A DNA stretch of 64,000 bases from Patescibacteria group bacterium (GCA_041660305.1 JBAZWO010000006.1:16432-80431), one strand, 5' to 3'; shown: positions 15,708 to 57,940, numbered from the stretch's first letter. A program made the numbers and translations. The notes: generated from the letters alone by a model not told the origin.

Positions 15708-16760
15708 ATGAAACGAGCGCTTATTATTGGTATATCTGGTCAAGATGGCTCTTACTTAGCAGAGTTATTATTAAATAAGGGTTATGAGGTACACGGCACT
15801 ATAAGACGTGCCAGTACATTTAATACCGGTAGGATAGATCATCTTTATCAAGATCGGCACGTTAATAACGTGCGTTTATTTTTACATTACAGTGATTTAA
15901 GTGATGGCAGTAATCTTAGTAGATTATTACGTGAAATTAAGCCGGATGAAATTTATAATTTAGGGGCGCAAAGCCATGTGCGGGTTAGTTTTGATATTCC
16001 GGAATATACGGGATTAATAACTGGCTTGGGAACACTAAAAATACTTGATGCTATGCGTGATGCTGAGGTTCCGGCGAAGTTTTATCAGGCTTCCAGTTCA
16101 GAAATGTTTGGGTTAGTGCAGGCCGTGCCGCAAAATGAAACCACACCGTTTTATCCGCGATCACCTTACGCGGTAGCCAAAGTGTACTCTTATTGGATTA
16201 CCAAAAATTATCGCGAAGCTTATAATATGTTCGCCTGTAATGGTATTTTGTTTAATCACGAATCACCTCGGCGCGGCGAAACCTTCGTAACACGAAAAAT
16301 TACTCGCGCGTTAGCTAAAATTAAATTAGGCATTGATAAAAAATTATATTTAGGAAACATGGATGCCAAACGTGATTGGGGCTATGCGCCAGATTATGTA
16401 GAAGCCATGTGGTTAATGATGCAACAGGAAAAATCCGATGATTATGTAGTGGCTACTAATGAAACACATACGGTGCGGGAATTTGTAGAAGTGGCCGGCA
16501 AAGAATTAGGCATGGAGATTGTTTGGGAAGGCAGTAAAGACAAAGAAAAAGGCTTTGATAAAAATACCGGTAATGAAATTGTAAATATAGATCCAAGGTA
16601 TTATCGTCCAACCGAAGTGGATTTATTAATAGGTGATTATTCCAAAGCCAAGCAAAAATTAGGCTGGGAACCAAAAGTTAAATTTCATGATCTAGTGAAA
16701 ATAATGGCCGAGGCGGATTATAATTATTACGCAAAAGAAAAAGGTCATTTAGCTAGCTAA
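15708..16760 (+). CDS. gmd: GDP-mannose 4,6-dehydratase
   Basis: [33 protein letters not shown] and [18 protein letters not shown] are all canonical Gmd motifs. Confidence 0.95.
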
Positions 16761-16780
16761 TACTATAATTATTATTTTTT

Positions 16781-17710
16781 ATGGATAAACAAGCCAAAAT
16801 ATATATTGCTGGACATCGTGGTTTGGTAGGTGGAGCTATCAAGCGAAAATTAGAACAATTAGGTTATACTAATTTTATATTACGTACGCATAAAGAATTA
16901 GATTTATTAAACCAAGCAGCGGTGCAGGAATTTTTTCAACAAGAAAAACCAGAGTATGTGTTTTTAGCGGCCGCTAAAGTAGGTGGAATTTATGCTAACG
17001 ATACGTATCCAGCCGATTTTATTTATCAAAACATTCAAATTCAAAACAATATTATTTTTGCGGCTTACCAAACTAAGGTAAAGAAATTATTATTTTTAGG
17101 CAGCAGCTGTATTTATCCAAAATTGTGTCCGCAGCCTATTAAAGAAGAGTATTTGTTAACCGGAGCGTTAGAGCCCACTAACGAATGGTATGCTTTGGCT
17201 AAAATTGCCGGTATAAAAATGTGTCAGGCTTTTAATAAGCAATATGGTACAAATTATATTTCAGTAATGCCTACTAATTTATATGGTCCTGGTGATAATT
17301 TCGATTTAAAAAATTCCCACGTATTACCGGCACTGATTCGTAAGTTTTATGAAGCAAAATTAAATAATACACCAACAGTAACCATGTGGGGCACGGGCAC
17401 ACCAAAACGTGAGTTTTTATATGTGGATGATTTAGCGGAGGCGGTAGTGTATTTAATGCAACAGTATGATGGTTCAGAGATTGTAAATATTGGTACAGGA
17501 AAAGATATTACTATTGGTGAATTAGGCAAGTTAATTAAAAATATTATTGGTTATAATGGTGCTATTGTTTATGATGCTACTAAGCCAGATGGGACACCAC
17601 AAAAGTTGTTAGATGTAAGCAGGTTAAAAAAGTTGGGTTGGGAGGCAAAGGTTTCATTGGAAGATGGAATTAAGCAGACAGTGGAGTGGTATCGTTTAAA
17701 ACAAGTGTAA
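16781..17710 (+). CDS. fcl: GDP-L-fucose synthase (GDP-4-keto-6-deoxymannose 3,5-epimerase/4-reductase)
   Basis: [42 protein letters not shown] and HVLPALI fit Fcl. It lies directly downstream of gmd. Confidence 0.95.
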
Positions 17711-25775: not shown

Positions 25776-26504
25776 CTAAATCTGGTAAAATAAATAATTA
25801 ATATTATCGCTAGTAAATTTTTTATATCCTAAACGTGTTAGTTTGTTAATTGTGTGTTGGACATCGGTTTCCGTTATACTATCAGTAGTGTGATGGTGAA
25901 ATTCCACGATAATTTGGTTAGCTTGTAATAAAATATTATTCGGAGTATTATCTAACACTTTACACTCCATGCCTTCGATATCAATTTTAAGGATATCAAC
26001 AGTAGAAAGTTTTAATTCCGTAAATAATGTTTGTAAAGTAATTGTTTTTACCGGATAAGGCGTAATGGTATCATTTTTTACATTAATATGATCTTGCAAC
26101 ATAGAACTGCTTTCATTTTCAGCTGTTTCATAGAAAATAGCTGTACCATTTATATCGGATAACGCATACATTAAGCGTATAAAATTCTTTGGATATTTTT
26201 TCGTGATATTATTTAAGGCAGGGGTATGTTTTTTTGTTGGATCTACTCCATAACATATTGCATTATATTTACTCATTAGTGCAATTGAAAAATCAGCAGT
26301 ATATCCTGTACCACAATCTATAATAATTGGTTGATGTTGTTTTAAATTCGCATCGTTATAAATCCAATAAACATGATTAAGCGGAATAATATTTCTTTTG
26401 GCCGCTATATTAGGATAATTTGGTTGAAAATATCGTTGATAGATAACAGATTTTGCTTTTTCTAACCTTTTTCCAAGCACTGTCTGTTTTAACGCATTTA
26501 ACAT
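25776..26504 (-). CDS. FkbM-family methyltransferase
   Basis: IIDCGTGYT, and LKIDIEGMECKVL...IIVEFHH typical of the FkbM family. Confidence 0.75.
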   Translation of the reverse strand: MLNALKQTVLGKRLEKAKSVIYQRYFQPNYPNIAAKRNIIPLNHVYWIYNDANLKQHQPIIIDCGTGYTADFSIALMSKYNAICYGVDPTKKHTPALNNITKKYPKNFIRLMYALSDINGTAIFYETAENESSSMLQDHINVKNDTITPYPVKTITLQTLFTELKLSTVDILKIDIEGMECKVLDNTPNNILLQANQIIVEFHHHTTDSITETDVQHTINKLTRLGYKKFTSDNINYLFYQI

Positions 26505-26553
26505 GAATGTTATCAGATTATTACTTACTAGATTAGTAAATTACTAAAGATTA

Positions 26554-27612: not shown

Positions 27613-27613
27613 G

Positions 27614-28780: not shown

Positions 28781-28783
28781 AAT

Positions 28784-40044: not shown

Positions 40045-42165
40045 TTATTCGGGCAGTTTATTTAATTCGCTATAAAAATAAAGTACAAATAGTTGTTCAA
40101 TGCCATTGTAGTTATCATCCCACACTGGGCTGCCATAAGTTAGTTCCTCCAAATTAGGTATTAGCACATAAGCAACGTTTCTTATGTCTTGTTTGCCTAG
40201 TATGCCGGCAAAACGAATAGTTTGATGGTGTAAATTAGGTTCATACCAATGTTCCACTTTTATTGTGGGGTAATTCGCTAACTGTTCAATTAGTGGATCT
40301 AGTTGAATAGAATTATCACAACTAATATCCAGTACTAACACTGGTTCAATGCCTTCTTGTAAGGGTTGTGTTGGTGTTAGAGAAATCACAACATCAGCAA
40401 AAGCACGTTGTGGACGAATATATTGATTAGCATCAGCTTCGCGTGCTCCTAATTGTTTTAGTATTTCTTCTTTACTACGTTGTCTATCTTTCTGATCGCG
40501 CATTAATTTCCAATGTTTACGTAAAGCTTCATCTGGTTCTACATAGATTTTAATATCAAAAATAGAACGCATTTTACTTAAATAAAAGGGATGTAACCCA
40601 ACATAGATAATTACTTTATTAGTTGTAATATTATTTAAGGAAGTAAATTTACCGGTGGCGTGATTGTAAGATGAACGCTTAATATTGGCACCGGTTTTTA
40701 ATATAGCAGTTTGTAGTAGCTCTTTGTATAAATTGTTACTTTTTGGATTTAAATGCGTAAATTGTTGCCAATTAGTATTATTGCGTTCCCATTTATGGGC
40801 ATCGTCTCCTTCAATACAAATTGCATTATTATTACCAAATAATTGTACCAGTTTTTTAGCTAAAGTGTTTTTACCAGCGCCAGAATCTCCGCCAATGCCA
40901 ACTACCAATGGCTTGTCAGCTATTTTGTATTCTAAATTGCTTTTCACTCCCACGCGATAAATCCACACGGCATTCATAATTATCGATGCTACTAGTAAAG
41001 TAAATATTAAATTAAGTAGTAATGGAATATTTAAACCAGGAATGGCCAAAACAAAACCAGAATTGATTAATTGAAAACTTGAAGTAAACGCTGCATCCGG
41101 ACTTAATACAAAATATAATAGATAAGCAATATTTAACGACCAAAAACTTATTTTTGGAATATTCTGATATTTGGCAAAGAAATATACATAAAAAGGAATG
41201 GACCAATAAAACCAGCCCGGCATTGGTGGAACAAAAATTACAAACACCGTAAATAACAAACCTAAAATAAGTAAAAAAGCATCTTTATTAAGTTTATGGT
41301 ATGGAAAAAAATTAAAAAACAAAATAAAAATAGCGGTAACAGCTAATAGTAATTGTAAATTATTATGTAGATAAGGTAAGGAAACTAAAAATATTTTTGC
41401 AGATTCATCGGTACCAAACACGCTTTTTATAAAACCATTAGAAAACAAATAAGGCGTGATAATAAGACCGAAGGCGGCTAATCCGGCACAACAATAACCA
41501 AACGCATGTTTTAAGGAATAGCGATTAACAAAAAAGTAAATAAAATAAAACGGCAGAACAACTAGTAAATGGGTTTTGGTAGCAATTCCTAAACCAAGTA
41601 ATAACACAGCTGGAAGTGGCTTCTTATTAAACAGAAAAATTAACGAAATGAACAAAATAGCCATTGGCATTACATCTAGTTGTCCATGAACATAATTAAT
41701 GAAAAATAAAATTGGAGAAGTCCAATATAACCATAGCACTTGTTTTTCTTTGGTTTCAAGCCATTTAGCTAATACTATATAAATTGCAGTATCTGCTAAT
41801 AATATAGGTAAACGCATCATTAATAAATTCCCAAATTGTACTACAGACCCGTCTAGATTTACAAACGGTATAAAAAGTAATCGAGCTAAAGTAAAAATCC
41901 ACAACATGACTGGTGGGTAAGGGAAAGCTCCTGGATAACCTTGCTGTACAAAAAATTCATAGGGATTATGAAAACCAGAGGTAACAAAATAATTTACAAA
42001 CGGAATAAAGCCTTTCACTAAAAAATCGGAACCAAGTAGGCTGCCGGCAATAATTTTAATACCCAAAATAATTAAGAACCATTTGTTGAACAATAATTTT
42101 CTCAACGGTATGTGATAGCGTTCTTCAATTTTTGTGAGAGTGATCATGGTGCTCAATAAATACAA
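40045..42165 (-). CDS. fusion protein: N-terminal polytopic GT-C/DUF2029-like membrane domain + C-terminal phosphoribulokinase/uridine-kinase-family P-loop kinase
   Basis: The membrane part (about aa 1-410) carries GAFPYPPVMLW. The kinase part has P-loop GIGGDSGAGKNTLAKKL, IEGDDAHKWER (PRK-like) and KIYVEPDEALRKHWKLMRD...YIRPQ..ADVVI. Confidence 0.7.
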   Translation of the reverse strand: MYLLSTMITLTKIEERYHIPLRKLLFNKWFLIILGIKIIAGSLLGSDFLVKGFIPFVNYFVTSGFHNPYEFFVQQGYPGAFPYPPVMLWIFTLARLLFIPFVNLDGSVVQFGNLLMMRLPILLADTAIYIVLAKWLETKEKQVLWLYWTSPILFFINYVHGQLDVMPMAILFISLIFLFNKKPLPAVLLLGLGIATKTHLLVVLPFYFIYFFVNRYSLKHAFGYCCAGLAAFGLIITPYLFSNGFIKSVFGTDESAKIFLVSLPYLHNNLQLLLAVTAIFILFFNFFPYHKLNKDAFLLILGLLFTVFVIFVPPMPGWFYWSIPFYVYFFAKYQNIPKISFWSLNIAYLLYFVLSPDAAFTSSFQLINSGFVLAIPGLNIPLLLNLIFTLLVASIIMNAVWIYRVGVKSNLEYKIADKPLVVGIGGDSGAGKNTLAKKLVQLFGNNNAICIEGDDAHKWERNNTNWQQFTHLNPKSNNLYKELLQTAILKTGANIKRSSYNHATGKFTSLNNITTNKVIIYVGLHPFYLSKMRSIFDIKIYVEPDEALRKHWKLMRDQKDRQRSKEEILKQLGAREADANQYIRPQRAFADVVISLTPTQPLQEGIEPVLVLDISCDNSIQLDPLIEQLANYPTIKVEHWYEPNLHHQTIRFAGILGKQDIRNVAYVLIPNLEELTYGSPVWDDNYNGIEQLFVLYFYSELNKLPE

Positions 42166-44067: not shown

Positions 44068-44898
44068 ATGTGCCATATGGCAAACATCATTCCTATGGCC
44101 GGTATCGGTTCACGTTTTTCCGAAGCCGGGTATTTACTACCCAAAGCCTTAATCCCAGTTTCCGGTAAACCAATGATTACTCGGGTAATCGAAGCTTTGC
44201 CACCAGCGGAAAAAAATATTTTTATTGTACGCCAAGAGCACATTAATCAATATGGTATTGATATGCTCATTAAACAATTACTACCGCAAGCGATTGTAAT
44301 TCCAGTAGAGAAAACTACCGAGGGACAAGCTTGTACGACTATGCTAGCAATGCCTTATCTTGAGCCAAATGATGAAATGTTTATTGCAGCTTGTGATAAT
44401 AGCTTTGTCTATAATCGTAAACGCTATGCGCAACTTACTGCCGATTCAACAATTGACGCGATTATTTGGACATTTACTCAAGAAAAATTACTAGTTCAAA
44501 AACCAACTGCCTGGGGTTGGGTAAAGTTAGCTAGTGATGGTTTAACGATTGATGATATGTCGGTTAAAGTGCCAGTATCTGATAATCCGTTTAACGATCA
44601 TGCGGTAGTGGCTACTTTTTATTTTAAAAAAGCCAGTGATTTTAAAGTGGCCTATGATTTAATGATTCAAGATAATTATCGTATTAATAATGAATTTTAT
44701 GTAGATGCTATGCCGATATTCTACAAAAAACTAGATAAACGAAGTGTGATGTTTGATGTAGATTTATATGTGGGTTGGGGCAAACCGCAAGATTTATACG
44801 AATATCAACTGTGGGAATATGTCTGTGAGCATAATCGTCCAGCGCCCGATGCTGCTAAGCTACCATTATGGCGACAGTTTTTTAAGCAGTTAAAGTGA
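44068..44898 (+). CDS. sugar-phosphate nucleotidyltransferase (NTP_transferase fold)
   Basis: IIPMAGIGSRFSEAGYLLPKALIPVSGKPMI. The ATG at 44077 is an alternative start. Confidence 0.7.
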   Translation: MCHMANIIPMAGIGSRFSEAGYLLPKALIPVSGKPMITRVIEALPPAEKNIFIVRQEHINQYGIDMLIKQLLPQAIVIPVEKTTEGQACTTMLAMPYLEPNDEMFIAACDNSFVYNRKRYAQLTADSTIDAIIWTFTQEKLLVQKPTAWGWVKLASDGLTIDDMSVKVPVSDNPFNDHAVVATFYFKKASDFKVAYDLMIQDNYRINNEFYVDAMPIFYKKLDKRSVMFDVDLYVGWGKPQDLYEYQLWEYVCEHNRPAPDAAKLPLWRQFFKQLK

Positions 44899-44913
44899 CC
44901 ATTAGAATGTGTT

Positions 44914-45684
44914 ATGAAATTTTCAATTATTACACCTTCCTATAATCAAGCCCAATTTATTGAACGTACTATTAAAAGTGTTTTAAGCCAAACTGGAGAT
45001 TTTGAATTAGAATATATTATTATGGATGGTGGCTCAACTGATGGTAGTGTTGAAACTATTAAACATTATGCCCAGCAAGATAAACGCATTATTTGGCGAT
45101 CAGAAAAAGACAGTGGACAATCTAATGCTATTAACAAAGGTTTAAAATTAGCCAGCGGTGATATTATTGCTTATTTAAATTCAGATGATATCTATCTGCC
45201 GAATGCCTTACAAATGGTAATGGAAGAATTTAAAAAAAATACTACTATTTCATGGGTCACCGGACAGTGTAAGATTATTAATAAGCATGATGTTGAAATA
45301 AAAAAAATTATCACGTGTTATAAAAATTTTTTTCTAAAACATTATAGTCATTCTAGTTTATTGGTATTAAATTATATTTCTCAACCAGCTACTTTTTGGC
45401 GTAAAACAGTTTTATTGGCCACTGGAGAATTTAACGAAAAAGAACACCTGGTGATGGATTATGAATATTGGTTAAGATTGAGTAAAAAATATCAGTTAAA
45501 TGTGATTGATAAGTATTTAGCTGGTTTTCGCTCGTATCAAAGCAATAAAAGTAGTTTACGTTTTGTAGAACAATTTAAAAGTGAGCATCGTATAGCTGCT
45601 CAATATACAAATAATCCATTGATTATTTTTTTGCATAAATTGCACAGTTGGTTGATTATCAGTTGTTATAAATTATTATCTTAA
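44914..45684 (+). CDS. glycosyltransferase family 2
   Basis: FSIITPSYNQAQFI, MDGGSTDGS, and the DxD motif NSDDIY. Confidence 0.85.
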   Translation: MKFSIITPSYNQAQFIERTIKSVLSQTGDFELEYIIMDGGSTDGSVETIKHYAQQDKRIIWRSEKDSGQSNAINKGLKLASGDIIAYLNSDDIYLPNALQMVMEEFKKNTTISWVTGQCKIINKHDVEIKKIITCYKNFFLKHYSHSSLLVLNYISQPATFWRKTVLLATGEFNEKEHLVMDYEYWLRLSKKYQLNVIDKYLAGFRSYQSNKSSLRFVEQFKSEHRIAAQYTNNPLIIFLHKLHSWLIISCYKLLS

Positions 45685-48600
45685 ATGAAGCGCTATCTTA
45701 TTATTATTCATCCGCATTTTACGTTACCAGGGGGGGCTGGTAAGTTAGCCTTAGAAATTGGCTCGCGTTTAACTAATGTTTGGGAAGTAATTACCGTGGC
45801 TCAACAAGTAAAACCAGCTTGGATTAAAGCTTATCCAAATGTTAGATTTAAAAGTACAGCTGGTCCAATTACTAGTAGCTTAGTTTTTTGGTTATTATTT
45901 CCATATTGGTATTGGCACACAGCCAGAATAATTAATGATTATCGTAAATTAGGTGAAGTAACTATTTTTTGTAATGTATTTCCAGCACAGTGGTTAGGCT
46001 TAACTTATAAGTGGTTACATCCCACAATATGTTGTGTATGGTATTGTCATGAACCGAGTGCGTTTATTTACATAGCTGCTTGGAAAAATTCCATTCAAAG
46101 CAAATTAAAACGTTATCTAGCTAAAATTTTACAACCTGTTTTAGCTTGGATTGATAAACGGCTAGTAAATTTAGCTGATGTTATTTTTACAAATTCGGTT
46201 TATACACAAAAATATATTCAGCAAATTTATCAACGATCAAGTATCGTGGTATATCCAGGAGTAACTTTACTAAATCACAAGTTACTACCAATGGTGCAGC
46301 GTGAAAAAATGATTATGACAGTGGGAAGGCTTACTAAATTTAAACGCATAGATGTGCTGATTAATGCTTTTAATACACTACAACACCAAGATTATAAATT
46401 ATACATTATTGGTGATGGAGAAGAACATAACAATATCATTAAATTGGTTGAGCAATATAATTTATCAGATAGCATTAAAGTTTTAACTAATGTTAATGAT
46501 GCTACATTACAGCAATATTATGCGGCAGCTAAACTGTTTGTTAGTTGCGCTAAACAAGAGCCATTTGGTATGACTCTCATTGAAGCTATGGCTCATGGTT
46601 TACCAGTAATTGCTGATAATTCCGGTGGACCAAAAGAAATTGTACAGAATAATGTTACAGGTAAGTTGATAGATTGTACAGTTGAACAATTACGTACTTG
46701 TATAGATAAATTATTAGATCAGCCAGATACATTACAACAGTATTCTGAACAAGCTAGGTTAGTAGTGCATAAAAAATTTATTTGGCAAGAAGCAGTTCAA
46801 CAAATACAAAGTAATTTAGTACAATACCTTGCTTTAAACGTAAAACATTCCAATCAAAAAGTTACTTTATTAAAAAGAATTATCAATCAAGCTCGCTTTT
46901 TATTAAAAGTAGTGCTAGGTAAAGAGGTATTATTTTCTGTGCAGACTAAAATTCCACAGCAATTTTTTGGTTCAAAAAAATATGGTGGGTGGGTTATTAA
47001 TCCAGTAAAAATTAATAAAGATAGTATCATATATTCTTTTGGAATAGGGGAAGATATTTCATTTGATTTGGCATTAATAGAAAAGTTTAACTGTAAGGTT
47101 TTTGCATTTGATCCTACACCAAAATCTATTAATTGGCTTAAACAACAACAGCTGCCTAAAAATTTTTTTTATTATGAATATGGTTTAGCGTCTCAAGATG
47201 GATTTATAAAATTATTTCCTCCAAAAAATTCGGCCCATGTTTCACATAGTATTATCCAAAAAGACAGTACAAAACCGCCGATTAACGTACAGGTATTGCG
47301 CTTACAGACTATTATGAAGCAACTTGGACATCAACACATTGATATTTTAAAAATGGACATTGAAGGTTCTGAATACGAGGTGCTTGATGACATTTTGCGG
47401 CAGAATCTTGATATTGATCAAATCCTTATTGAGTTTCATCATCGATTTTCTAAAATTTCTGTTGCAAAAACAAAAAAAGCTATCAGACAGCTAAATCAAG
47501 CAGGATATAAAATATTTTCTATTTCTGCATCTAGAGAAGAATATTCTTTTTATAAAAACAATACTAAAATTTTACAAGTTATTCCTTATTTTGTACCAGC
47601 CTATGGTTATGGGGGGCCAGTTAAAGTGTGTTTTGATGTGTCTAAAGAACTGGTGCAACGTGGTTATAATGTTACAGTGGCCACTACCGATACGCTAGAC
47701 GATAAACGGCGTATTAAACAGCTAGACGAAACAATCGCTGGGGTAAGAATATTACGTTTTAAAAATGTGAGCAATCGATTTGCAAAAAAGTACAATGCTT
47801 ATTTGCCAATTAGTTTCTATTTCTGGTTTAAAAAAAATGTGCAATCCTTTGATTTAGTATATTGCCATGATTTTTTTACTTTGCAAAATGTAATTGTTAG
47901 TCACTTTTGTAAAAAATATTCTGTACCTTATTTTATTCAACCACATGGAGCATTATCTCCAATTAGGCAAGAAGCAAAATTTAAAAATATTAAAAAACAT
48001 TTTATTAATATTTTTCAGATTATTTTTACCAACGCTAAAGGCATTGTGGCTTTAACCAAACAGGAAAAACAAGATATTATATTAATTAACCAAACAGTCC
48101 AAGATAAAATTCATATTATTCCAAACGGATTAGATGGACAAGAATTTGAGCACGTTCAAAAAGTAGATTTACATCAAAAATTTTTTATACCAAAAGAAAA
48201 TAAAATAATCGGTTATATTGGCAGAGTACAATATATCAAAGGAATTGACATTACTCTTGAGATATTGAATTTATTAAAGGATAAAATGAAATTTACTTTT
48301 TTGATTATAGGACCCAATGAAGGTGAAAAAGAAAAATTGGAAAAAATTATTAAAAAATTAGAACTACAAAATAATATTATTTTCACCGGCATGTTAGTTC
48401 ATCAAGAAAAACTGGAAACTATTAAATCTTGTGATTTATTTATGTTCACTTCTCGCAATGAAGGTTTTTCCATGACAATATTAGAAATTGCTAGACTTGG
48501 TATTCCGCAAATCATTTCCACTAATTGTAATATTCCTGAAATTGGAGAGCATCAAGCAGGCTTTGTGTTAGATAGTGCAGATAAAAAAGCTTTTGTAGAT

Positions 48601-48723
48601 ACAATAATATTGTTATCAACAGATGCTGCTAAATATAAGCAAATGTCAGAAAATGCAAAAATGTTAGTAAAAAGTCATTTTAGTTTAAAGGCAGTATGTG
48701 ATAAAATTGAAGAGTTATTATGA
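45685..48723 (+). CDS. tri-domain glycan synthase: GT4 + FkbM-type methyltransferase + GT4
   Basis: GT4 number 1 covers about 45685-46840 (EPFGMTLIEAMAHGLPVIA). The FkbM domain covers about 46970-47550 (YSFGIGEDISFD, LKMDIEGSEYEVL, LIEFHH). GT4 number 2 covers about 47568-48723 (GYGGPVKV, EGFSMTILEIARLGIPQI). Confidence 0.8.
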   Translation: MKRYLIIIHPHFTLPGGAGKLALEIGSRLTNVWEVITVAQQVKPAWIKAYPNVRFKSTAGPITSSLVFWLLFPYWYWHTARIINDYRKLGEVTIFCNVFPAQWLGLTYKWLHPTICCVWYCHEPSAFIYIAAWKNSIQSKLKRYLAKILQPVLAWIDKRLVNLADVIFTNSVYTQKYIQQIYQRSSIVVYPGVTLLNHKLLPMVQREKMIMTVGRLTKFKRIDVLINAFNTLQHQDYKLYIIGDGEEHNNIIKLVEQYNLSDSIKVLTNVNDATLQQYYAAAKLFVSCAKQEPFGMTLIEAMAHGLPVIADNSGGPKEIVQNNVTGKLIDCTVEQLRTCIDKLLDQPDTLQQYSEQARLVVHKKFIWQEAVQQIQSNLVQYLALNVKHSNQKVTLLKRIINQARFLLKVVLGKEVLFSVQTKIPQQFFGSKKYGGWVINPVKINKDSIIYSFGIGEDISFDLALIEKFNCKVFAFDPTPKSINWLKQQQLPKNFFYYEYGLASQDGFIKLFPPKNSAHVSHSIIQKDSTKPPINVQVLRLQTIMKQLGHQHIDILKMDIEGSEYEVLDDILRQNLDIDQILIEFHHRFSKISVAKTKKAIRQLNQAGYKIFSISASREEYSFYKNNTKILQVIPYFVPAYGYGGPVKVCFDVSKELVQRGYNVTVATTDTLDDKRRIKQLDETIAGVRILRFKNVSNRFAKKYNAYLPISFYFWFKKNVQSFDLVYCHDFFTLQNVIVSHFCKKYSVPYFIQPHGALSPIRQEAKFKNIKKHFINIFQIIFTNAKGIVALTKQEKQDIILINQTVQDKIHIIPNGLDGQEFEHVQKVDLHQKFFIPKENKIIGYIGRVQYIKGIDITLEILNLLKDKMKFTFLIIGPNEGEKEKLEKIIKKLELQNNIIFTGMLVHQEKLETIKSCDLFMFTSRNEGFSMTILEIARLGIPQIISTNCNIPEIGEHQAGFVLDSADKKAFVDTIILLSTDAAKYKQMSENAKMLVKSHFSLKAVCDKIEELL

Positions 48724-48788
48724 ATAATAGTAGTATATGCAACATAGTTTTTGACTCAATTAATAGGCTATGTTAGTATCAAAATCAA

Positions 48789-50759
48789 ATGAATTTTATT
48801 ACTAGCAGTGACATTTTATCTATTATTATAATTTTGTTGGTTTTATTTAGTAGTGGCTTTGCATTATTTTTACCACTGTGGTGGTGGTTGAAAAATTATC
48901 GTGCAGCACTGCAATTTGTTATTCCAATATCACTAGCTATTGAAATTTTATTTGGTTATGTTTTTTATTGTTTTAGAATCGTGCACTGGTTTCCTTTAGC
49001 TTATATTGGTGTAGTGGCAGTAATTAATATTATAATTGGTATAGTATTACGTCATAAAATTATTCAGTTTTGGCAACAATTATCAAAACTGCATTGGCTA
49101 ACATTATTAGTTGGTTTAGGTGTAATAGGAGTATTGGTTTATACTCGTTTTTATGATGCTTTAACCGTTGTTGCCCCAGGGGCAGTAGATACCTATAATC
49201 ATACGATTTTTTTAAACGATCTAAATAAGTTAGGGTATCTTCATCAGATATTTTATGCTCCGGGTTTTCATTTGGTGTTATATCCGCTACTTAAAATACT
49301 ACCAACTGTCATATTATATCGATTTGTAGGTCCAGTATTAGGTTTATTAATTATAGCTAGCTTATATTTATTTATAAGAGATATTTTTAAGCATACTGTA
49401 ACAAAATATGTAACAATCATTCTCCTAATATTACCAGTATTTAATCAGCTTACTTTAGTAACGATTAGTTTTTTTTCTTCTTGTCTTACGTTTATTTTTT
49501 TTACAGCGTTTATTTTTTTATTAGCTCAACCTAAACAATTAAGTTATTGGAAAACAATTATTTTGGGTGTTATTTTAACATTAGCGTTAGCAATTATAGT
49601 GCCATACTTATACGTTCAATACGTTTCAGCTGTGGGCTTATGTTTTTTAGTTGCTGTAGTTGCTAAAAAATATTTTGGTTGGAAATACGTTCGTTTTTTA
49701 TTGGTTTTTGTTCTACTGGGTGGTTTAGGGCTAGCGGCTTCATTTGGACATGTGTATTTACAAAATAAAATTAATAAAAATCAAACAGCTGGTTTTCCAG
49801 AAATACCAGTAGTGGTAAGACAAAAAAATAAAACGGTTACTCAGAATAATAAAACAAAAGTGCCACCAGCTACTAAAACAGGTAAAGTAGTTACGTCGCA
49901 GGAATACCCGTGGTGGAGTGTTAGTAAAGATGCCTGGCAAGCTCGTTATAATAAATTAAGCGCGTCAGATTTTTGGCAGAAAAATATCATGCCAATGCTT
50001 GTTACAGGACAGGATCTTTTGCAAGCAAAAAATGTTCGTTCTTTTTCAGGAATGTTGGCAATAGGTTCTTATTTGTGGATTATATTAGCTTGCGTTATTA
50101 CCGGCTACGCTACCAAGAAAAAGAATAAGCTTATGGTTATTATTGGGGTGTTTAGTGTTTTATTTGGTGTAGCTACGCAAACAGGTATCTTGGAAATGAG
50201 TATTTATCGTGGACGTAGTGGCTGGTATTTAATGTGGTTAGCTGTGTTAGGCGCAGCATATTTATTTGATATTATTTATCATAAAAGACTTAACATTTTA
50301 ATTGTGATATTTGGAATATTAGCTTGTTTGGCTGGAGTGTTATATCCTCCGGTGTTTTATCGTAATTATTTTGCTGATCAATTTACTGTGGCAGCCATGA
50401 TAAAACAAGAGTATCCAAACAAGCAAATTATTTTTATTTCTAACCAAAAGGAATTATTAATTTTGTCGCCTGATTTTATTTTGGCTCCATTTAACATTGA
50501 TAGTCTTGAGAAACAAAACGGTGACTTTACTAATGAAATTATTCTAATACTACCAAAGAAATTTTATAATTTAGACCCGGTATTATCGGCACAAGCCTTA
50601 TCTACCGATACCGGTTACGTTAATTTCGCAATCGAGCAGGCTATGAACGAAAAAAATCAAACACAATTAGTAGCAGAAATTAAAGCCCACCCTAAATTTT
50701 CTCACTATAAGTTATATTGGGAAAGTGATGATATTGCAGCTTATCGTTTGATACAGTAA
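48789..50759 (+). CDS. large polytopic membrane protein with C-terminal soluble domain, hypothetical (glycan assembly context)
   Basis: A 656-aa protein with at least 12 hydrophobic segments and a Lys/Thr-rich linker (KNKTVTQNNKTKVPPATKTGK). Confidence 0.45.
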   Translation: MNFITSSDILSIIIILLVLFSSGFALFLPLWWWLKNYRAALQFVIPISLAIEILFGYVFYCFRIVHWFPLAYIGVVAVINIIIGIVLRHKIIQFWQQLSKLHWLTLLVGLGVIGVLVYTRFYDALTVVAPGAVDTYNHTIFLNDLNKLGYLHQIFYAPGFHLVLYPLLKILPTVILYRFVGPVLGLLIIASLYLFIRDIFKHTVTKYVTIILLILPVFNQLTLVTISFFSSCLTFIFFTAFIFLLAQPKQLSYWKTIILGVILTLALAIIVPYLYVQYVSAVGLCFLVAVVAKKYFGWKYVRFLLVFVLLGGLGLAASFGHVYLQNKINKNQTAGFPEIPVVVRQKNKTVTQNNKTKVPPATKTGKVVTSQEYPWWSVSKDAWQARYNKLSASDFWQKNIMPMLVTGQDLLQAKNVRSFSGMLAIGSYLWIILACVITGYATKKKNKLMVIIGVFSVLFGVATQTGILEMSIYRGRSGWYLMWLAVLGAAYLFDIIYHKRLNILIVIFGILACLAGVLYPPVFYRNYFADQFTVAAMIKQEYPNKQIIFISNQKELLILSPDFILAPFNIDSLEKQNGDFTNEIILILPKKFYNLDPVLSAQALSTDTGYVNFAIEQAMNEKNQTQLVAEIKAHPKFSHYKLYWESDDIAAYRLIQ

Positions 50760-50818
50760 TAAATAAAAGTGCCGCTTGTATTTACAAATACTTAGTTTAG
50801 TGTTATAGTTTTCCAACC

Positions 50819-51658
50819 ATGTTTAGACAGGAAGTTAGTGTACAAACTAAGGTAATTACTCCACCAACGACGTTGTTGAGTTTGAATATTAAGGAATTTT
50901 GGCGCTTTCGTGAATTGTTCTATATTTTTGTTTGGCGTGATGTTAAGGTGCGATACAAACAAACAATGTTAGGGATTGCTTGGGCTGTGTTTCAGCCATT
51001 AGTTACCATGCTAATTTTTACGGTTTTTTTTGGAAATTTGGCCAAAATTCCTTCTGATGGAGTACCATACCCCATTTTTGTGTATGCTGGGTTATTGTTA
51101 TGGAATTATTATTCAGTAGCTTTAACTAACATTAGCACGGTATTGGTGGCACAAGAAAGCATTATTAAGAAAGTTTATTTTCCTAGATTGATATTACCAT
51201 TAGCTACCGCTTTAACACCAACGATAGATCTGGTGTTTTCTTTTTTTGTATTTATTGGTTTAATGTTTTATTTTCATTTTGTACCACATGTATTAGGTAT
51301 TGTGATTATGCCGGTGTTGATTTTTTTTACATTTCTTAACGCAGCTGGCTTGGGCTTATTTTTGTCGTCACTAAATGTAAAATATCGTGACGTGCAATAC
51401 ATTGTTCCTTTTTTTATTCAAATATTATTATTTGTTACCCCTGTGATTTATCCAGTAAGTATGATTCCGGCAAAATATACTTGGTTAGCCTGGTTAAATC
51501 CTATGGCGGGTATTATTACTACAGCGCGTGCTACTTTACTTGGCGGTCCAATACAATTTTGGCCAGTAGTATTTACAATAGGGTTGTGTTTATTTTTATT
51601 TTTATTTGGGATAGTATTTTTTAGAAAAACTGAACGTTTTTTTGCTGATATTTTATGA
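50819..51658 (+). CDS. wzm: ABC-2 type polysaccharide exporter permease (Wzm/TagG type), copy 2
   Basis: WRDVKVRYKQT, NVKYRDVQY and six TM segments. It is collinear with 23631-24452. Confidence 0.9.
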   Translation: MFRQEVSVQTKVITPPTTLLSLNIKEFWRFRELFYIFVWRDVKVRYKQTMLGIAWAVFQPLVTMLIFTVFFGNLAKIPSDGVPYPIFVYAGLLLWNYYSVALTNISTVLVAQESIIKKVYFPRLILPLATALTPTIDLVFSFFVFIGLMFYFHFVPHVLGIVIMPVLIFFTFLNAAGLGLFLSSLNVKYRDVQYIVPFFIQILLFVTPVIYPVSMIPAKYTWLAWLNPMAGIITTARATLLGGPIQFWPVVFTIGLCLFLFLFGIVFFRKTERFFADIL

Positions 51659-52914
51659 ATAAACCAGTTATTACCATTGAACACGTTAGTAAACGATATA
51701 GTCTAAACAGGGTAGCACTTGATAATACGTTGCGCGATAAAATTACGCACGCGCTTTATAAACGTAATGAGCCCAAGCAGTCTGCTAAGGTGGATTTTTT
51801 AGCATTGCAAGATATTAATCTAACTGTTCAACAAGGAGAAACGTTAGGAATCATTGGTCGTAATGGTGCGGGTAAAAGCACATTGTTAAAAGTACTATCA
51901 CAAATTACACCTCCAACTGCAGGGAAAATTACGTTATGTGGGCGAGTGGCTAGTTTGTTAGAAGTAGGCACAGGCTTTCATCCAGAGTTAACTGGGCGGG
52001 AAAATATTTTTCTTAATGGGGCAATATTAGGTATGACTCGTAAAGAAATTAATAAAAAATTTAATGACATTGTTACTTTTGCGGAAATCGAACAATTTAT
52101 TGATACGCCAGTTAAACGTTATTCTAGTGGTATGTATGTTCGTTTGGCGTTTGCTGTAGCCGCTCAACTTGAACCGGAAATTTTAATTATTGACGAAGTT
52201 TTGGCCGTCGGAGACATTCAATTTCAAAAAAAATGTCTTGGTAAAATGGGCGAAGCAGGCAAGCAAGGAAGAACAGTAATTTTTGTTAGCCACAACATGA
52301 ATGCGATTGAACAATTGTGTCGGTCTTGTGTATGGTTAGATCATGGCATGGTTAAAGCACATAGCAATAATGATGTATCGAGTGTTATTAAAGCGTATGT
52401 GGCAGAAAGTCTAGACAAAACTCAGGCTACCCAGTGGGTGAATAATAACAATGAATTTGCTAATCAATGGTTTACACCATGTAAATTTTATTTAGCTGAT
52501 GCTTATGGTAAAGCGCTTATATTACCACATAGTAATAATAAAGAAGCTTGGGTTCATATTGAAGGCGATATTACAGAAAGTGATACAGCCTTAACTATTG
52601 GTTATGCGATTTATTCCATGGAAGGCAATTTGTTATACTGGTCTTATCAAACTGATCAATCAGAATCTCAATGGCCAAAACTAAAGTTGGGCAAAATTAA
52701 GTTACGCAGCGCTTTACCCCAACGTTTTTTAAATGAGGGTGATTATCGAATAGAGCTTATTTCTAGTTTACATTTTCGACAATGGTTATGTGAGCCAGGC
52801 GTGCATACCCCTACTATATTTTTATCTATTCAAGGTGGTTTGAGCGATTCACCTTATTGGTTAGCTAAACGACCTGGTTTATTAGCGCCGGTTTTGCCAT
52901 GGGAACAATACTAA
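51655..52914 (+). CDS. wzt: polysaccharide ABC exporter ATP-binding protein with extended C-terminal domain (Wzt/TagH type), copy 2
   Basis: GRNGAGKST, YSSGMYVRL and LIIDEVLAVGD. The N-terminal 250 aa closely resemble copy 1, while the C-terminal roughly 170 aa are unrelated by eye. Confidence 0.9.
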   Translation: MNKPVITIEHVSKRYSLNRVALDNTLRDKITHALYKRNEPKQSAKVDFLALQDINLTVQQGETLGIIGRNGAGKSTLLKVLSQITPPTAGKITLCGRVASLLEVGTGFHPELTGRENIFLNGAILGMTRKEINKKFNDIVTFAEIEQFIDTPVKRYSSGMYVRLAFAVAAQLEPEILIIDEVLAVGDIQFQKKCLGKMGEAGKQGRTVIFVSHNMNAIEQLCRSCVWLDHGMVKAHSNNDVSSVIKAYVAESLDKTQATQWVNNNNEFANQWFTPCKFYLADAYGKALILPHSNNKEAWVHIEGDITESDTALTIGYAIYSMEGNLLYWSYQTDQSESQWPKLKLGKIKLRSALPQRFLNEGDYRIELISSLHFRQWLCEPGVHTPTIFLSIQGGLSDSPYWLAKRPGLLAPVLPWEQY

Positions 52915-52926
52915 TATAAAAAAGTC

Positions 52927-53730
52927 ATGCCACATCTTTCCGTTATTATTCCTACATGGAATCGTGCTCATACCATTAGTCAGGCCATTCAAAGCGTCTT
53001 GAATCAAACTTATACTAACCTTGAAGTATTAGTGTGTGATGATGGATCTACCGATAACACTGAAACTATAGTTAAAGCGTTAGCGGAGACTGATTCACGG
53101 ATATATTGGTTACCAGGTAAACACAGTGGCAAACCAGCGATTGTACGTAATTGTGGATTAAAGTTTTCTACTAGTCCGTGGGTAGCTTTTCTCGATAGTG
53201 ATGATTATTGGTTACCAAAAAAAATAGAGCAGCAATTTTTTTTATTAGAGCGATTTCATTGTCGGGCAGCTTGTACAAATGCGTTGTCTGTGAAACCTAA
53301 GGAACAGATTGAGCGGGTATTTTTTCGTGAATTAAAAGAGAAAATTACATTTCAAGATTTATTAATTGGTAATGGAGTGATTTGTAGCTCTGCGCTAGTG
53401 CATCGTTCTGTATTTGAAACAATTGGTTTGTTTCCAGAAGTAGATGCTTTAGGAACCTTAGAAGATTATGCCTTTTGGCTGCGAGTGGCCACACAAACAG
53501 ATTTTGTTTATTGTGCTAAACCACAATTAGTGTATCGAGATAATCCACAAGATAGTATTCGAGCACACGATTTAGAACAATGGGTACAACGCAAAATCAT
53601 ATTTAAAGATTTTTTGCATTGGAATCAACAACAAAGAAAAAAACAACCCTCGATAAAAAAATATAGCACAGCTGCTCGCTGGCGTTTTTGGAAAGAAATA
53701 TATACCCACCTGCATGATAAATTAAAATAA
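52927..53730 (+). CDS. glycosyltransferase family 2
   Basis: LSVIIPTWNRAHTI, CDDGSTDNT and LDSDDYW. Confidence 0.85.
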   Translation: MPHLSVIIPTWNRAHTISQAIQSVLNQTYTNLEVLVCDDGSTDNTETIVKALAETDSRIYWLPGKHSGKPAIVRNCGLKFSTSPWVAFLDSDDYWLPKKIEQQFFLLERFHCRAACTNALSVKPKEQIERVFFRELKEKITFQDLLIGNGVICSSALVHRSVFETIGLFPEVDALGTLEDYAFWLRVATQTDFVYCAKPQLVYRDNPQDSIRAHDLEQWVQRKIIFKDFLHWNQQQRKKQPSIKKYSTAARWRFWKEIYTHLHDKLK

Positions 53731-53732
53731 CT

Positions 53733-54908
53733 ATGAAAATACTTCATACCGTAGAATTTTATTCACCATCCGTCGGTGGCATGCAAGAAGTAGTGCGACA
53801 ACTATCGGAACGGTTAGTGCGTTTAGGTCATGATGTTACAGTAGCTACCACAAAATTATTGAACCGCAACAGTACTGAAATCAACGGTGTACATATTCGA
53901 GAATTCAGTATTAGTGGTAATCAAGTGCGTGGATATCAAGGTAATATAACTGAATATCAGCAATTTTTACAGCAACAACACTTTGATGTCATGACAAATT
54001 TTGCAGCCCAACAGTGGGCTACGGATTTAGCCTTACCAATACTATCAGTTATTAAATCAAAGAAAGTGTTTGTGCCAACCGGGTTTTCCGGATTATATGT
54101 ACCAGAATATAAATCGTATTTTGAGCGCATGACGAATTGGATGCAACAATATGAGATGAATGTATTTTTATCTGAACATTATCGAGATATTGATTTTGCC
54201 CGACAACATAATATTGGAAATATCAGGGTGATATCAAATGGTGCGGCTAGTGATGAATTTTTGCCAACCAGTACATGTAATATTAGAGAGCAATTAAGCA
54301 TTCCACAACAACATTTTTTAATTCTATCCGTTGGTTCGCACTCTGGAGCCAAAGGGCATGCCGAAGCAATTAAGATTTTTACTAAAGCTCGTATTAAAAA
54401 CGCTACATTGCTTATTATTGGCAATAGTTTTGGCGGTGGATGCACGTACTCATGTCAAATCAAAAGTTGGCTGAATAAATTTAACATCAAACATAGATTA
54501 TTTGCAGATAAGAAAATAATTATTATTAATTGTAGCAGATCAGAAACGGTTGCTGCTTATCAGCAAGCTAATTTATTTTTATTTCCGTCTAATCTAGAAT
54601 GTTCGCCCTTAGTATTATTTGAGAGCATGGCAGCACATTTGCCATTTTTAACTACTGATGTGGGCAACGCTAGAGAAATTATTAATTGGTCACAGGGCGG
54701 TTTATTATTACCTACTAGGTTTACTAATAACGGACAAAGTTATGCTATATTAGAACAGTCTGTTGTGTTATTAGAGCGAATTTATCAAGCTGTTGATTTA
54801 CGTAAGCAGTTGGGTCAAGCTGGTTTTACGGCTTGGCAAAATAAGTTTACTTGGGAAAAAATTACTAAACAATATGAACAACTTTATCAACACATTTTAA
54901 GAGTATGA
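53733..54908 (+). CDS. glycosyltransferase family 4 (GT-B)
   Basis: N-terminal PSVGGMQEVVRQL and C-terminal PSNLECSPLVLFESMAAHLPFLTTDVGNAREI. Confidence 0.8.
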   Translation: MKILHTVEFYSPSVGGMQEVVRQLSERLVRLGHDVTVATTKLLNRNSTEINGVHIREFSISGNQVRGYQGNITEYQQFLQQQHFDVMTNFAAQQWATDLALPILSVIKSKKVFVPTGFSGLYVPEYKSYFERMTNWMQQYEMNVFLSEHYRDIDFARQHNIGNIRVISNGAASDEFLPTSTCNIREQLSIPQQHFLILSVGSHSGAKGHAEAIKIFTKARIKNATLLIIGNSFGGGCTYSCQIKSWLNKFNIKHRLFADKKIIIINCSRSETVAAYQQANLFLFPSNLECSPLVLFESMAAHLPFLTTDVGNAREIINWSQGGLLLPTRFTNNGQSYAILEQSVVLLERIYQAVDLRKQLGQAGFTAWQNKFTWEKITKQYEQLYQHILRV

Positions 54909-55735
54909 TTATTGTTAAGTTAATTGGAGGTTTAGGTAATCAAATGTTTCAATATGCCGTTGGACGTAGTTTAGCAGAGAAACAACATACTTCATTACAG
55001 CTTGATATTTCTGGATACGCTCATCAAGTTGTAGGTAACACGCCACGCTACTATAGTTTAGATTGTTTTCAAATTTTAGCGCAACCGGTTACTGTGTCGT
55101 GCTGGCGTTTACATTGGTTACAGTTTAGACAGCATTATCAACGAGAAGTACAGTTTAACTTTAATCCCGCGATTTTTCAATTGAGGTCAGGTAATTATTT
55201 AGAAGGGTACTGGCAAACGGAAAAATATTTTAATGATATTACTGAGCTTATTCGTCATGATTTTACGTTGCAGCTGGCATATGATCACATAGATCCAAAG
55301 TTACGTGCAGAGATTAAAAATAGCACGGCTGTATCAGTACACGTTCGGCGTGGGGATTATATTACTAATCAAGCAGCTAGCCAATTTCATGGGTTATGTG
55401 ATCTAGGTTATTATCGACGTTGTGTACAATATATAATAAATCATGTTACACAACCACATTGGTTTGTATTTTCTGACGATATTGAGTGGACAAAGGAAAA
55501 TTTATTATTGCCAGGAAAAGTTACATACGTTTCTAATGGTAAAATTAAAGATTATGAAGAATTAACTCTAATGTCATATTGTAAACATCATATTATTGCT
55601 AACAGTTCATTTAGTTGGTGGGGAGCATGGTTAAATGCTAGTGCTAAAAAAATAGTACTAGCTCCTAAACAATGGTTTATTGATACAAAAATTAATACCA
55701 GTGATATTTTACCTGCCACATGGATCAAGTTGTAA
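54905..55735 (+). CDS. alpha-1,2-fucosyltransferase (glycosyltransferase family 11)
   Basis: N-terminal MIIVKLIGGLGNQMFQYA and HVRRGDY are GT11 hallmark motifs. SSFSWWGAWL lies near the C-terminus. Confidence 0.85.
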   Translation: MIIVKLIGGLGNQMFQYAVGRSLAEKQHTSLQLDISGYAHQVVGNTPRYYSLDCFQILAQPVTVSCWRLHWLQFRQHYQREVQFNFNPAIFQLRSGNYLEGYWQTEKYFNDITELIRHDFTLQLAYDHIDPKLRAEIKNSTAVSVHVRRGDYITNQAASQFHGLCDLGYYRRCVQYIINHVTQPHWFVFSDDIEWTKENLLLPGKVTYVSNGKIKDYEELTLMSYCKHHIIANSSFSWWGAWLNASAKKIVLAPKQWFIDTKINTSDILPATWIKL

Positions 55736-55746
55736 TAAAATCTAAT

Positions 55747-57881: not shown

Positions 57882-57921
57882 TGCGAGCATAAATCTCTAC
57901 CACAAACACTACACCTTCCGG
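57866..57921 (+). promoter_or_regulatory. candidate anti-terminator helix (57866-57878 pairing with 57908-57921)
   Basis: CCGGAAG (57866-57872) is a copy of the terminator 3' arm. It can pair with CTTCCGG (57915-57921), extended by TGT/ACA. This pairing excludes the terminator stem. Confidence 0.45.
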
Positions 57922-57940
57922 ATCACCGGAAGGTTTTGTT
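57913..57940 (+). terminator. intrinsic terminator (attenuator) upstream of aroF
   Basis: A perfect 9-bp stem ACCTTCCGG (57913-57921) / CCGGAAGGT (57926-57934) with loop ATCA, followed by TTTGTT. Confidence 0.65.

Follow-up and report, generated by a model that had tools for sequence, protein, structure and literature searches.

The 64,000-nt stretch of DNA analyzed here (GCA_041660305.1 JBAZWO010000006.1:16432-80431; its whole length is referred to as the window) comes from a metagenome-assembled genome (MAG), and the protein under study carries the NCBI source name 'Patescibacteria group bacterium'. In the open reading frame (ORF) listing of the window, positions 45685..48723 of the plus strand contain exactly one ORF, which starts with ATG and encodes 1012 amino acids (aa). 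An interpretation made earlier from the DNA sequence alone, below called the sequence-only reading, described this ORF as a fusion of a GT-B glycosyltransferase, an FkbM-type methyltransferase (MT) dependent on S-adenosylmethionine (SAM) and a second GT-B glycosyltransferase, and this description is borne out by the Pfam domains and by the single ORF that encodes them. The glycosyltransferase modules, both of family GT4, are denoted GT4-N and GT4-C:

45685..48723, plus strand: whole GT4-FkbM methyltransferase-GT4 ORF, 1012 aa (ORF listing and Pfam)
45685..46833, plus strand: GT4-N module, aa 1-383, retaining GT-B glycosyltransferase (Glyco_transf_4 at 15-193, Glycos_transf_1 at 205-358)
46834..46866, plus strand: linker 1, aa 384-394, about 11 residues, without a start codon (homologue projection and junction scan)
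46867..47565, plus strand: FkbM-family SAM-dependent methyltransferase module, aa 395-627 (PF05050, PF13383, TIGR01444)
47566..48720, plus strand: GT4-C module, aa 628-1012, retaining GT-B glycosyltransferase (Pfam Glyco_transf_4 and Glycos_transf_1)

The module boundaries were obtained by projecting the termini of standalone homologues (19 GT4-N-like, 157 MT and 64 GT4-C-like proteins) onto the fused protein, which leaves about 11 residues between GT4-N and MT and no linker residues between MT and GT4-C. The coordinates given by the sequence-only reading were close to these, except that its MT start at 46970 lies about 100 nt too late, because the FkbM subfamily possesses a conserved N-terminal helix. 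According to Pfam, each half of the protein consists of a Glyco_transf_4 N-lobe and a Glycos_transf_1 C-lobe (E-values from 1e-8 to 1e-42), with Methyltransf_21/FkbM (E 1e-16) and Methyltransf_22 between the two GT4 units. Against PF13439 and PF00534, GT4-N scores 33.1 and 145 bits and GT4-C 62.2 and 114.5 bits, respectively, all above the Pfam cut-offs of 28.5 and 26.4 bits, and the MT module likewise exceeds the cut-offs of PF05050 (66.3 bits; cut-off 22.7), PF13383 (56.4; 22.4) and the NCBIfam model TIGR01444 (60.9; 37.7).

All three modules are predicted to be catalytically intact, so that the protein would comprise two retaining GT4 glycosyltransferases and one FkbM MT. The EX7E motif of GT4-N is formed by E292 and E300, and K220 and the G16-G17 loop are conserved as well (comparison with 18 standalone homologues); in GT4-C, compared with 22 homologues, the motif is located at 926-934, where E934 is conserved, as are R847, K852 and G643-G644. 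Apart from E926, the key residues of both modules are at least 90% conserved in the standalone homologues. A 36-sequence family alignment has 16 invariant columns, and the MT module retains every one of them: motif I corresponds to G453-x-G455 and motif II to D476-P-T, followed by K556, I559-E-G561, E563 and E583-F-H-H586, which match the family motifs K-x-D-I-E-G-x-E and E-F-H-H. The two motifs singled out by the sequence-only reading, LKMDIEGSEYEVL and IEFHH, are found at aa 555-567 and aa 582-586, and the SAM-binding residues of the middle domain, which were looked for in the family alignment, are all in place.

The AlphaFold (AF2) model of the MT module, built on the same alignment, has a predicted local distance difference test (pLDDT) score of 94.8 and a predicted TM-score (pTM) of 0.90. 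The best 50 PDB structures matched by this model in Foldseek are all class I SAM-dependent methyltransferases, many of them solved with SAM or S-adenosylhomocysteine, with TM-scores of 0.33-0.58, which therefore point to an MT subfamily without a close solved relative while confirming the fold class; sequence and profile searches of the PDB with the MT module yielded no meaningful match. For the GT4 modules, the nearest solved relatives found by PDB sequence search are the generic GT4 enzymes BshA, WbaZ-1, MshA, TarM and WbnH. The only long helix in the MT model is the 22-residue N-terminal helix typical of the MT family itself, and there is no room in the protein for a coiled-coil ruler, as homologues of the three modules cover all but 11 residues. 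No characterized member of the MT subfamily was found. The FkbM family includes NoeI, the Nod-factor fucose 2-O-methyltransferase. The genomic context suggests that the MT substrate is a sugar hydroxyl (O-methylation); in every locus examined, the MT is situated in a glycan cluster.

We favor the view that the 1012-aa protein is a genuine fusion, as several features of the sequence suggest. The identical protein occurs on 2 contigs; it has two NCBI MAG accessions (MFA5995932.1 and MFA6387938.1) and is also found in JGI, Logan and GEM. Neither junction contains an ATG, GTG or TTG codon at the expected start of the downstream module, the nearest in-frame GTG codons would remove conserved elements, and the two alternative frames are interrupted by many stops at both junctions. 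The claim of a single polypeptide rather than split genes accordingly stands, with no sign of a frameshift or stop in the sequence and its database copies, raw reads lying outside this analysis.

The compact GT4-FkbM-GT4 form appears to be unique so far in current databases. An indexed search of 5.8 billion proteins returned no second protein with all three modules besides the fused protein itself, and none was found among the best 150 of 249,696 phmmer matches in a library of 1.84 billion cluster representatives. These 150 matches score at least 195 bits; the MT subfamily alone gives about 190-250 bits, so this MT together with two GT4 modules would be expected to appear among them, while a protein whose FkbM domain is more distant could escape. 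The fused protein itself is missing from the listed phmmer matches though indexed as its own cluster representative, and the 50%-identity library of this search may be incomplete or exclude the query. A scan of the genome collection with the single fused protein gave no match.

The placement of an MT between glycosyltransferases, on the other hand, is already present elsewhere and is not new. The MT subfamily is spread over many bacterial phyla and also occurs in some archaea. At least 388 species-representative genomes encode it, and in a census of 80 of them the MT is free-standing in 71 loci and fused in 9. One partially colinear protein (P0115) has a GT4-MT architecture corresponding to aa 210-624 of the fused protein, and other fusions include GT2-MT, Wzx-like-MT (P0004 and P0113, in which the partner is a Wzx-like flippase domain), deacetylase-MT and MT-MT. 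The same MT subfamily is also found in giant proteins of 1636 to 3744 aa from Ignavibacteria/Bacteroidota-type MAGs, with GT2, GT4, GT56-like, deacetylase, extra methyltransferase and TPR modules. These comprise a 2171-aa protein of locus L012 (7310-13825; GT-B-like - GT2 - GT2 - MT - GT4 - GT2), a 3744-aa protein of L019 (8684-19918; GT56-like - MT - GT4 - MT - MT - GT4 - GT2...), a protein of L018 (5748-10658) and P0030 of L013 (2585-10099, 2504 aa), and judging by their domain content they look like single-chain glycan assembly lines, apparently uncharacterized ones. A further protein, P0049 (627 aa), combines a GT4-N-type module, 33% identical to aa 2-471 of the fused protein, with a class I methyltransferase of an unrelated kind (Methyltransf_11/25); the two proteins together imply that the GT4-N subfamily acquired a methyltransferase partner on no fewer than two independent occasions.

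The fused gene is the third of ten co-directional genes (44068-57780) separated by gaps of -16 to +65 nt, which, together with a donor-sugar locus further upstream, are the following:

15708..17710, plus strand: GDP-mannose 4,6-dehydratase (GMD) and GDP-fucose-synthase-like epimerase/reductase (GFS), likely donor-sugar supply
44068..44898, plus strand: sugar-1-phosphate nucleotidylyltransferase-like protein (NTP_transf_3), operon gene 1, 15-nt gap to the GT2 gene
44914..45684, plus strand: GT2 glycosyltransferase, stop codon abutting the ATG of the fused gene (gap 0)
48789..50759, plus strand: 656-aa polytopic membrane protein, estimated to have about 12-15 transmembrane segments
50819..51658, plus strand: Wzm2, ABC-2 permease of the glycan exporter (PF01061; NCBIfam Wzm/RfbD-like)
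51655..52914, plus strand: Wzt2, exporter ATPase with a nucleotide-binding domain (NBD; aa 1-235) and a C-terminal domain (aa 236-419, nt 52360-52911) (PF00005; closest NCBIfam model TagH/Wzt)
52927-53730, plus strand: GT2 glycosyltransferase
53733-54908, plus strand: GT4 glycosyltransferase
54905-55735, plus strand: GT11 fucosyltransferase-like protein
55720-57780, plus strand: bifunctional GT2 (aa 13-161)-GT4 (aa 332-649) protein, 686 aa, the second fused glycosyltransferase of the operon
57913..57934, plus strand: strongest terminator-like hairpin of the region (9 bp, 6 GC, T-rich tail), directly 3' of the last operon gene

The operon thus contains six glycosyltransferase modules besides those of the fused protein. 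The exporter genes lie where they had been placed in the sequence-only reading, about 2 kb downstream of the fused gene: Wzm2 starts at 50819, at a distance of 2.1 kb, and Wzt2 at 51655. They constitute the second such pair of the window, the first (Wzm1/Wzt1) being located at 22371-24452 on the minus strand; Wzm2 and Wzm1 are 48% identical. The last genes of the operon (52927-57780) are spaced by -16 to +12 nt, and the 656-aa membrane protein has no match in Pfam, NCBIfam or the PDB. A promoter scan was uninformative (79 sites versus 76.9 expected), and scanning the window for Rfam families and tRNAs gave no hit. The glycan region has a GC content of 27-35%, compared with about 40% in the flanking housekeeping genes, and no rmlABCD genes were found in the window.

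The O-antigen framing of the sequence-only reading does not fit the host. The protein derives from a Patescibacteria MAG, and the Candidate Phyla Radiation (CPR) has been placed in a monoderm clade (bioRxiv 10.1101/2021.05.31.446380), so the product would be not an O-antigen of lipopolysaccharide (LPS) but a cell-surface glycan of the ABC-transporter pathway. The S-layer and cell-wall glycans of Gram-positive bacteria would provide a better analogy.

The origin of the fusion can be followed in CPR relatives. In the loci L002 and L003, which are the contigs of the closest standalone MTs (P0165 and P0166), the genes are separate and ordered GMD - GFS - GT2 - MT - GT4 - GT4; the GT2 is 56-61% identical to that encoded at 44914, the MT 58-59% to the MT module, and the first GT4 59% to GT4-C over its full length. 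The stop codon of the L003 MT and the start codon of the GT4 gene overlap as ATGA (AAC AAA TGA / ATG AAA ATT CTA CAG), and at this position the window reads AAC AAT ACT AAA ATT TTA CAA, with neither a stop nor an ATG and with the frames in register. A small indel at such a translationally coupled stop/start junction is enough for fusion. In the Parcubacteria M10-OD1-1 locus L007 (LSNL01000003.1), GT2 (56%) and MT (62%) are fused into a 496-aa protein (9212-10702), followed by a separate GT4-C orthologue (10702-11853, 58% identical). In L001, the GT2 orthologue is followed by P0002 (752 aa), the halves of which are 49% and 44% identical to GT4-N, and by an orthologue (38%) of the 656-aa membrane protein, directly downstream of and overlapping the GT4-N-GT4-N gene. 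The possibility that P0002 is a version of the fused protein that lacks the MT was considered and rejected, as it is a tandem duplicate of the GT4-N type only. On the upstream side, the GT2 is a partner conserved throughout the related loci, with orthologues of 56-61% identity immediately before MT or GT4-N genes in L001, L002, L003 and L007; in the first three of these loci, GMD and GFS orthologues (68-82% identical) immediately precede the cassette. Judging from these comparisons, the fused protein is a lineage-specific in-frame joining of operon neighbors that are kept separate or joined differently in sister genomes.

A standalone paralogue of the MT is encoded in the window itself:

25776..26504, minus strand: standalone MT paralogue in the first ABC-transporter glycan cluster (PF05050)

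It is 32% identical to the MT module (E 1.7e-24). Derivation of the fused modules from the GT4, FkbM and GT4 genes of that cluster (cluster 1; 27614, 25776 and 24516, in the same order) was tried and rejected: the cluster-1 GT4s show a generic similarity of 22-26% to the fused GT4 modules, and only the MT is a specific paralogue.

The NBDs of Wzt2 and Wzt1 are 66% identical, and their C-terminal tails do not align. The Wzt2 tail is one of a conserved family of Wzt tails, for which 58 homologues were found; searching the PDB with it by sequence and by profile produced no meaningful match. Its AlphaFold (AF2) model (aa 236-419, pLDDT 87) has Wzt carbohydrate-binding domains (CBDs) as its best 13 PDB matches in Foldseek (2r5o, 8dky, 6o14, 5hno; E 1.3e-6 to 1.7e-4, probability 1.0), namely those from Escherichia coli O9a (2r5o, the best match), from Aquifex aeolicus with and without 3-O-methyl-mannose and from R. 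terrigena O12. The domain is thus predicted, on the basis of this model, to have the Wzt CBD fold. In the literature, the presence of a CBD in Wzt is given as the hallmark of a pathway whose glycan receives a non-reducing-end cap that ends elongation and permits export (PMC9445017).

On this background, we propose, with a probability of roughly 55%, that the fused protein is a trifunctional enzyme whose MT caps a surface glycan for export by Wzt2. At the cytoplasmic face of the membrane, a lipid-linked glycan would receive one sugar, in a single linkage, from each of the two GT4 modules, with donors likely of the GDP-mannose/GDP-fucose type because GMD and GFS are conserved neighbors of the cassette. 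The MT would O-methylate a sugar of the glycan, most likely the non-reducing terminal one, and the resulting methyl cap would block extension and be read by the CBD of Wzt2, leading to export, as in the precedents of E. coli O8, A. aeolicus and the WsaE S-layer glycan system. Since the MT is present at 1:1:1 with the glycosyltransferases and a coiled-coil ruler is lacking, it would be the kinetic competition of methylation with extension, rather than a molecular ruler, that determines chain length. The fused MT is the best candidate for capping because it is the only non-glycosyltransferase modifying enzyme of the operon, which encodes no other MT, kinase or Kdo-transferase. Wzt2 orthologues of other phyla (50-61% identical including the CBD) also support this role: an MT gene directly follows them in 2 of the 4 loci examined, whereas in the window this position is not occupied by an MT. 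The sequence-only reading had left the choice between a polymerase that methylates each repeat and a combined polymerase and terminator; the latter is now favored because the cognate Wzt has a CBD-fold domain, and the former retains weight as a rival. The more specific version, in which the MT of a ruler-free polymerase-terminator competes with the next extension for one and the same hydroxyl after each GT4 step, kinetic partitioning alone sets the length and the methyl cap opens the way to export by the CBD-bearing Wzt, we consider rather unlikely.

Several observations weigh against the capping proposal. The Wzt2 tail scores 14.5 bits against Pfam Wzt_C, below the threshold of 30.4, and the TM-scores of its structural matches are moderate (0.43-0.64). 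The coiled-coil ruler typical of characterized terminators is missing from the fused protein. The product of the GT11, or an unusual sugar supplied through the operon nucleotidyltransferase, could serve as the cap instead. An MT of the subfamily has Wzm/Wzt genes within 10 kb in just 3 of the 80 census loci, and no Wzm/Wzt was found in the 9-22 kb of fetched flanks of the cassette in L001-L003 and L007. The MT subfamily is also fused to Wzx-like flippases, which suggests per-repeat methylation in other contexts. The MTs that adjoin Wzt2-type CBDs elsewhere belong to other MT families. The idea that Wzt2-type CBDs travel specifically with the MT type of the fused protein was therefore rejected, as was the assignment of unannotated ORFs next to such CBDs in L004 and L005 as FkbM-like, these being unrelated to the FkbM profile.

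Part of this evidence leads to an alternative that we regard as possible but somewhat unlikely, namely that the MT decorates an internal sugar or every repeat and that the Wzt2 CBD reads another cap, e.g. a terminal fucose added by the GT11. The distance of most members of the MT subfamily from Wzm/Wzt genes agrees with this alternative, per-repeat methylation is the natural reading of the fusions with Wzx-like domains, and the GT11 and the nucleotidyltransferase would supply alternative caps; furthermore, a capping MT fused 1:1:1 without a ruler would terminate very often, and the pairing of a GT4-N-type module with an unrelated methyltransferase in P0049 suggests a glycosyltransferase/methylation pair acting on the sugar just added. 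This has to be set against the CBD fold of the cognate Wzt, whose best structural matches include methyl-cap readers, the lack of another MT, kinase or Kdo-transferase in the operon, and the WsaE precedent, in which an MT fused to two polymerizing glycosyltransferases is the terminator. Moreover, in all three loci where an MT of the subfamily lies near the exporter (L025, L054 and L055, from Chloroflexia, Ca. Chloroploca and Methanoculleus), the Wzt has a CBD-type tail of 174-188 aa, in each case homologous to the CBD of Wzt1. One of these three loci is from an archaeal MAG.

A further reading, which we hold to be quite unlikely, assigns the fused enzyme to a self-contained cassette: together with the GT2 and the 656-aa membrane protein it would make another glycoconjugate, for instance a short methylated glycolipid or a glycan attached to protein and handled by the membrane protein, and Wzm2/Wzt2 would serve only the downstream genes. 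Such a separation is compatible with L001-L003 and L007, where the cassette is accompanied by GMD/GFS and a large membrane protein and the fetched flanks show no Wzm/Wzt, although these flanks are short and a transporter could be further off. It would also account for the cassette-free loci of other phyla that contain orthologues of Wzt2, of the GT4 at 53733 and of the GT11 (the GT4 and GT11 orthologues, 48% and 39% identical, adjoin Wzt2-type transporters in L004 and L006), and for the position of the two widest gaps of the operon (65 and 59 nt) on either side of the membrane-protein gene. However, all ten genes are co-directional with no gap above 65 nt, the only strong terminator-like hairpin follows the last of them, and no MT is encoded in the downstream half, though one is often present in Wzt2-type loci elsewhere.

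Finally, an assembly or sequencing artefact, i.e. indel errors at the junctions that merged two or three separate genes, is extremely improbable: the junction DNA is A/T-rich with short homopolymers, the genes are split in the orthologous loci, where stop and start codons overlap, and an exact-protein contig look-up returned no match, but, apart from the recurrence of the identical protein and the lack of start codons and of alternative open frames described above, errors would be needed at two independent in-frame junctions, the junction differs from the split form of L003 by several substitutions and an indel rather than by one base, no frameshift-split genes were noticed among the ORFs of the window, and comparable fusions exist elsewhere (GT4-FkbM in P0115 and GT2-MT in L007).

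The capping proposal can be compared with several characterized systems. The closest functional precedent would be WsaE of Geobacillus stearothermophilus NRS 2004/3a, a trifunctional MT-GT-GT enzyme of S-layer glycan biosynthesis that forms a 2-O-methyl cap (PMC2943079). Both proteins combine one MT and two glycosyltransferases in a single polypeptide, within a Wzm/Wzt pathway and a monoderm host, and the MT of WsaE makes a methyl cap at the non-reducing end that is thought to be read by Wzt. WsaE, which was compared by description, differs in its module order (MT-GT-GT versus GT4-MT-GT4) and in its donor, dTDP-rhamnose, whereas GMD/GFS of the window suggest GDP-sugars; the modules of the fused protein are an FkbM MT and GT4s. 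In Klebsiella pneumoniae O7, ORF6 has the architecture MT-kinase-CBM-coiled coil-GT2-GT2, CBM being a carbohydrate-binding module, and a coiled-coil molecular ruler is a feature of terminators of the WbdD/WbbB/ORF6 class (PMC11231755). ORF6, like proteins of the WbbB/ORF7-O4 type, resembles the fused protein in that a terminator MT and two polymerizing glycosyltransferases of the ABC-transporter pathway form one protein. It makes a methyl-phosphate cap in LPS O-antigen synthesis of a diderm host and has GT2 modules instead of GT4, together with a kinase, a CBM and a coiled-coil ruler, none of which is present in the fused protein. The WbdA polymerases (E. coli O8/O9a, Klebsiella O5/O3) share the tandem GT4 modules in one polypeptide, and in the WbdA/WbdD systems a methyl or phospho-methyl cap is read by the C-terminal CBD of Wzt, of which 2r5o is the best match to the Wzt2 tail. 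The terminator WbdD, however, is encoded separately, contains a coiled-coil ruler and has an MT that is not of the FkbM type, unlike the MT located between the GT4s here, and no WbdD match to the full fused protein was obtained in the PDB sequence search.

Nearer relatives of the MT module itself are the standalone FkbM MTs (P0165, P0166 and the paralogue at 25776-26504), which share all invariant residues, an extent of about 240 aa and the N-terminal helix; the closest members are 58-67% identical to the MT module and differ in being free-standing, whereas the fused MT is flanked covalently on both sides. The giant proteins (L012, L019, L018 and P0030/L013) contain the same MT subfamily (51-57% identity) between glycosyltransferase modules, but they are much larger, with other flanking modules and long spacers, in contrast to the compact and seamless fused protein. 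By analogy, the latter is best described as probably working like the WsaE and ORF6 systems while being a member of neither class, given its module order, MT family, GT family and lack of a ruler. The sequence-only reading saw a 'different logic' in the position of an MT between two glycosyltransferases; this does not hold, in view of the already characterized WsaE and O7 ORF6 and of the giant proteins. What is new is the order and combination of the modules: the design principle is already documented, and current models are not overturned.

Several other features of the window were noted, some of them related to surface glycans. A second complete ABC-transporter glycan cluster, cluster 1 (17720-30801, minus strand), encodes a GT2, a HAD protein, a GT4, two FkbM MTs, a GT4, Wzm, Wzt, an asparagine synthase, a GT2 and a 651-aa polytopic membrane protein; its standalone FkbM MTs are located at 26554-27612 (plus strand) and 25776-26504 (minus strand), and its Wzt1 has a canonical Wzt_C domain (53 bits). 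The presence of two Wzts with non-aligning C-terminal domains suggests that two differently capped glycans may be produced from one genome. In L001 (9231-10001), the orthologue of the GT2 at 44914 directly follows the GDP-fucose-synthase-like gene; therefore about 27 kb of the window (17720-44898), including all of cluster 1, is absent there. The glycan region of the window looks like a hypervariable glycan island. It encodes seven large polytopic membrane proteins of about 520-656 aa with about 7-15 predicted transmembrane segments (8119-9747, 13031-14596, 17720-19675, 30719-32377, 32277-33845, 33893-35584 and 48789-50759), which have no family match or only weak PMT_2/GT22 matches and may be GT-C-type extracytoplasmic glycosyltransferases, ligases or oligosaccharyltransferases. 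An unusual fusion of 706 aa (40045-42165, minus strand) joins a GT87-like polytopic membrane domain (a weak match, E 3e-4) to a C-terminal phosphoribulokinase/uridine-kinase domain (E 7e-34) and has a class II aldolase, an inositol-monophosphatase-family protein and a LigT-like phosphoesterase as neighbors. Two shikimate-pathway fusions, EPSP synthase-shikimate kinase (493 aa) and dehydroquinase-shikimate dehydrogenase (447 aa), are encoded at 60212-63033 (plus strand) after DAHP synthase and DHQ synthase; such a near-complete pathway deserves mention for a Patescibacteria MAG, as Patescibacteria are generally poor in biosynthesis. The remaining features are an Elp3-like protein (1876-3429, plus strand) with radical SAM, Radical_SAM_C and GNAT acetyltransferase domains, a KilA-N domain protein (3534-4352, plus strand) and a 1.46-kb stretch (4353-5811) with small ORFs only (at most 103 aa) and no tRNA or Rfam match.

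The surface chemistry of Patescibacteria probably matters for their episymbiotic lifestyle; a literature search on CPR surface glycans retrieved nothing specific. The history of the fusion among the CPR relatives is unusually clear, with a junction traceable to a small indel at an overlapping stop/start, and the same GT2, MT and GT4 parts, split, pairwise fused or triply fused in sister genomes, point to a modular assembly of glycans. If the MT is a terminator, the fused protein would represent a compact, ruler-free test case for length control by kinetic competition and possibly a small tool for making methyl-capped oligosaccharides. Should the ruler-free reading be true, this would be, as far as we found, the first described cap-and-export checkpoint in Patescibacteria. 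The locus hints at the use, in these bacteria, of cap-dependent export through Wzm/Wzt, a scheme familiar from the O-antigens of LPS and the S-layer glycans of Gram-positive bacteria.

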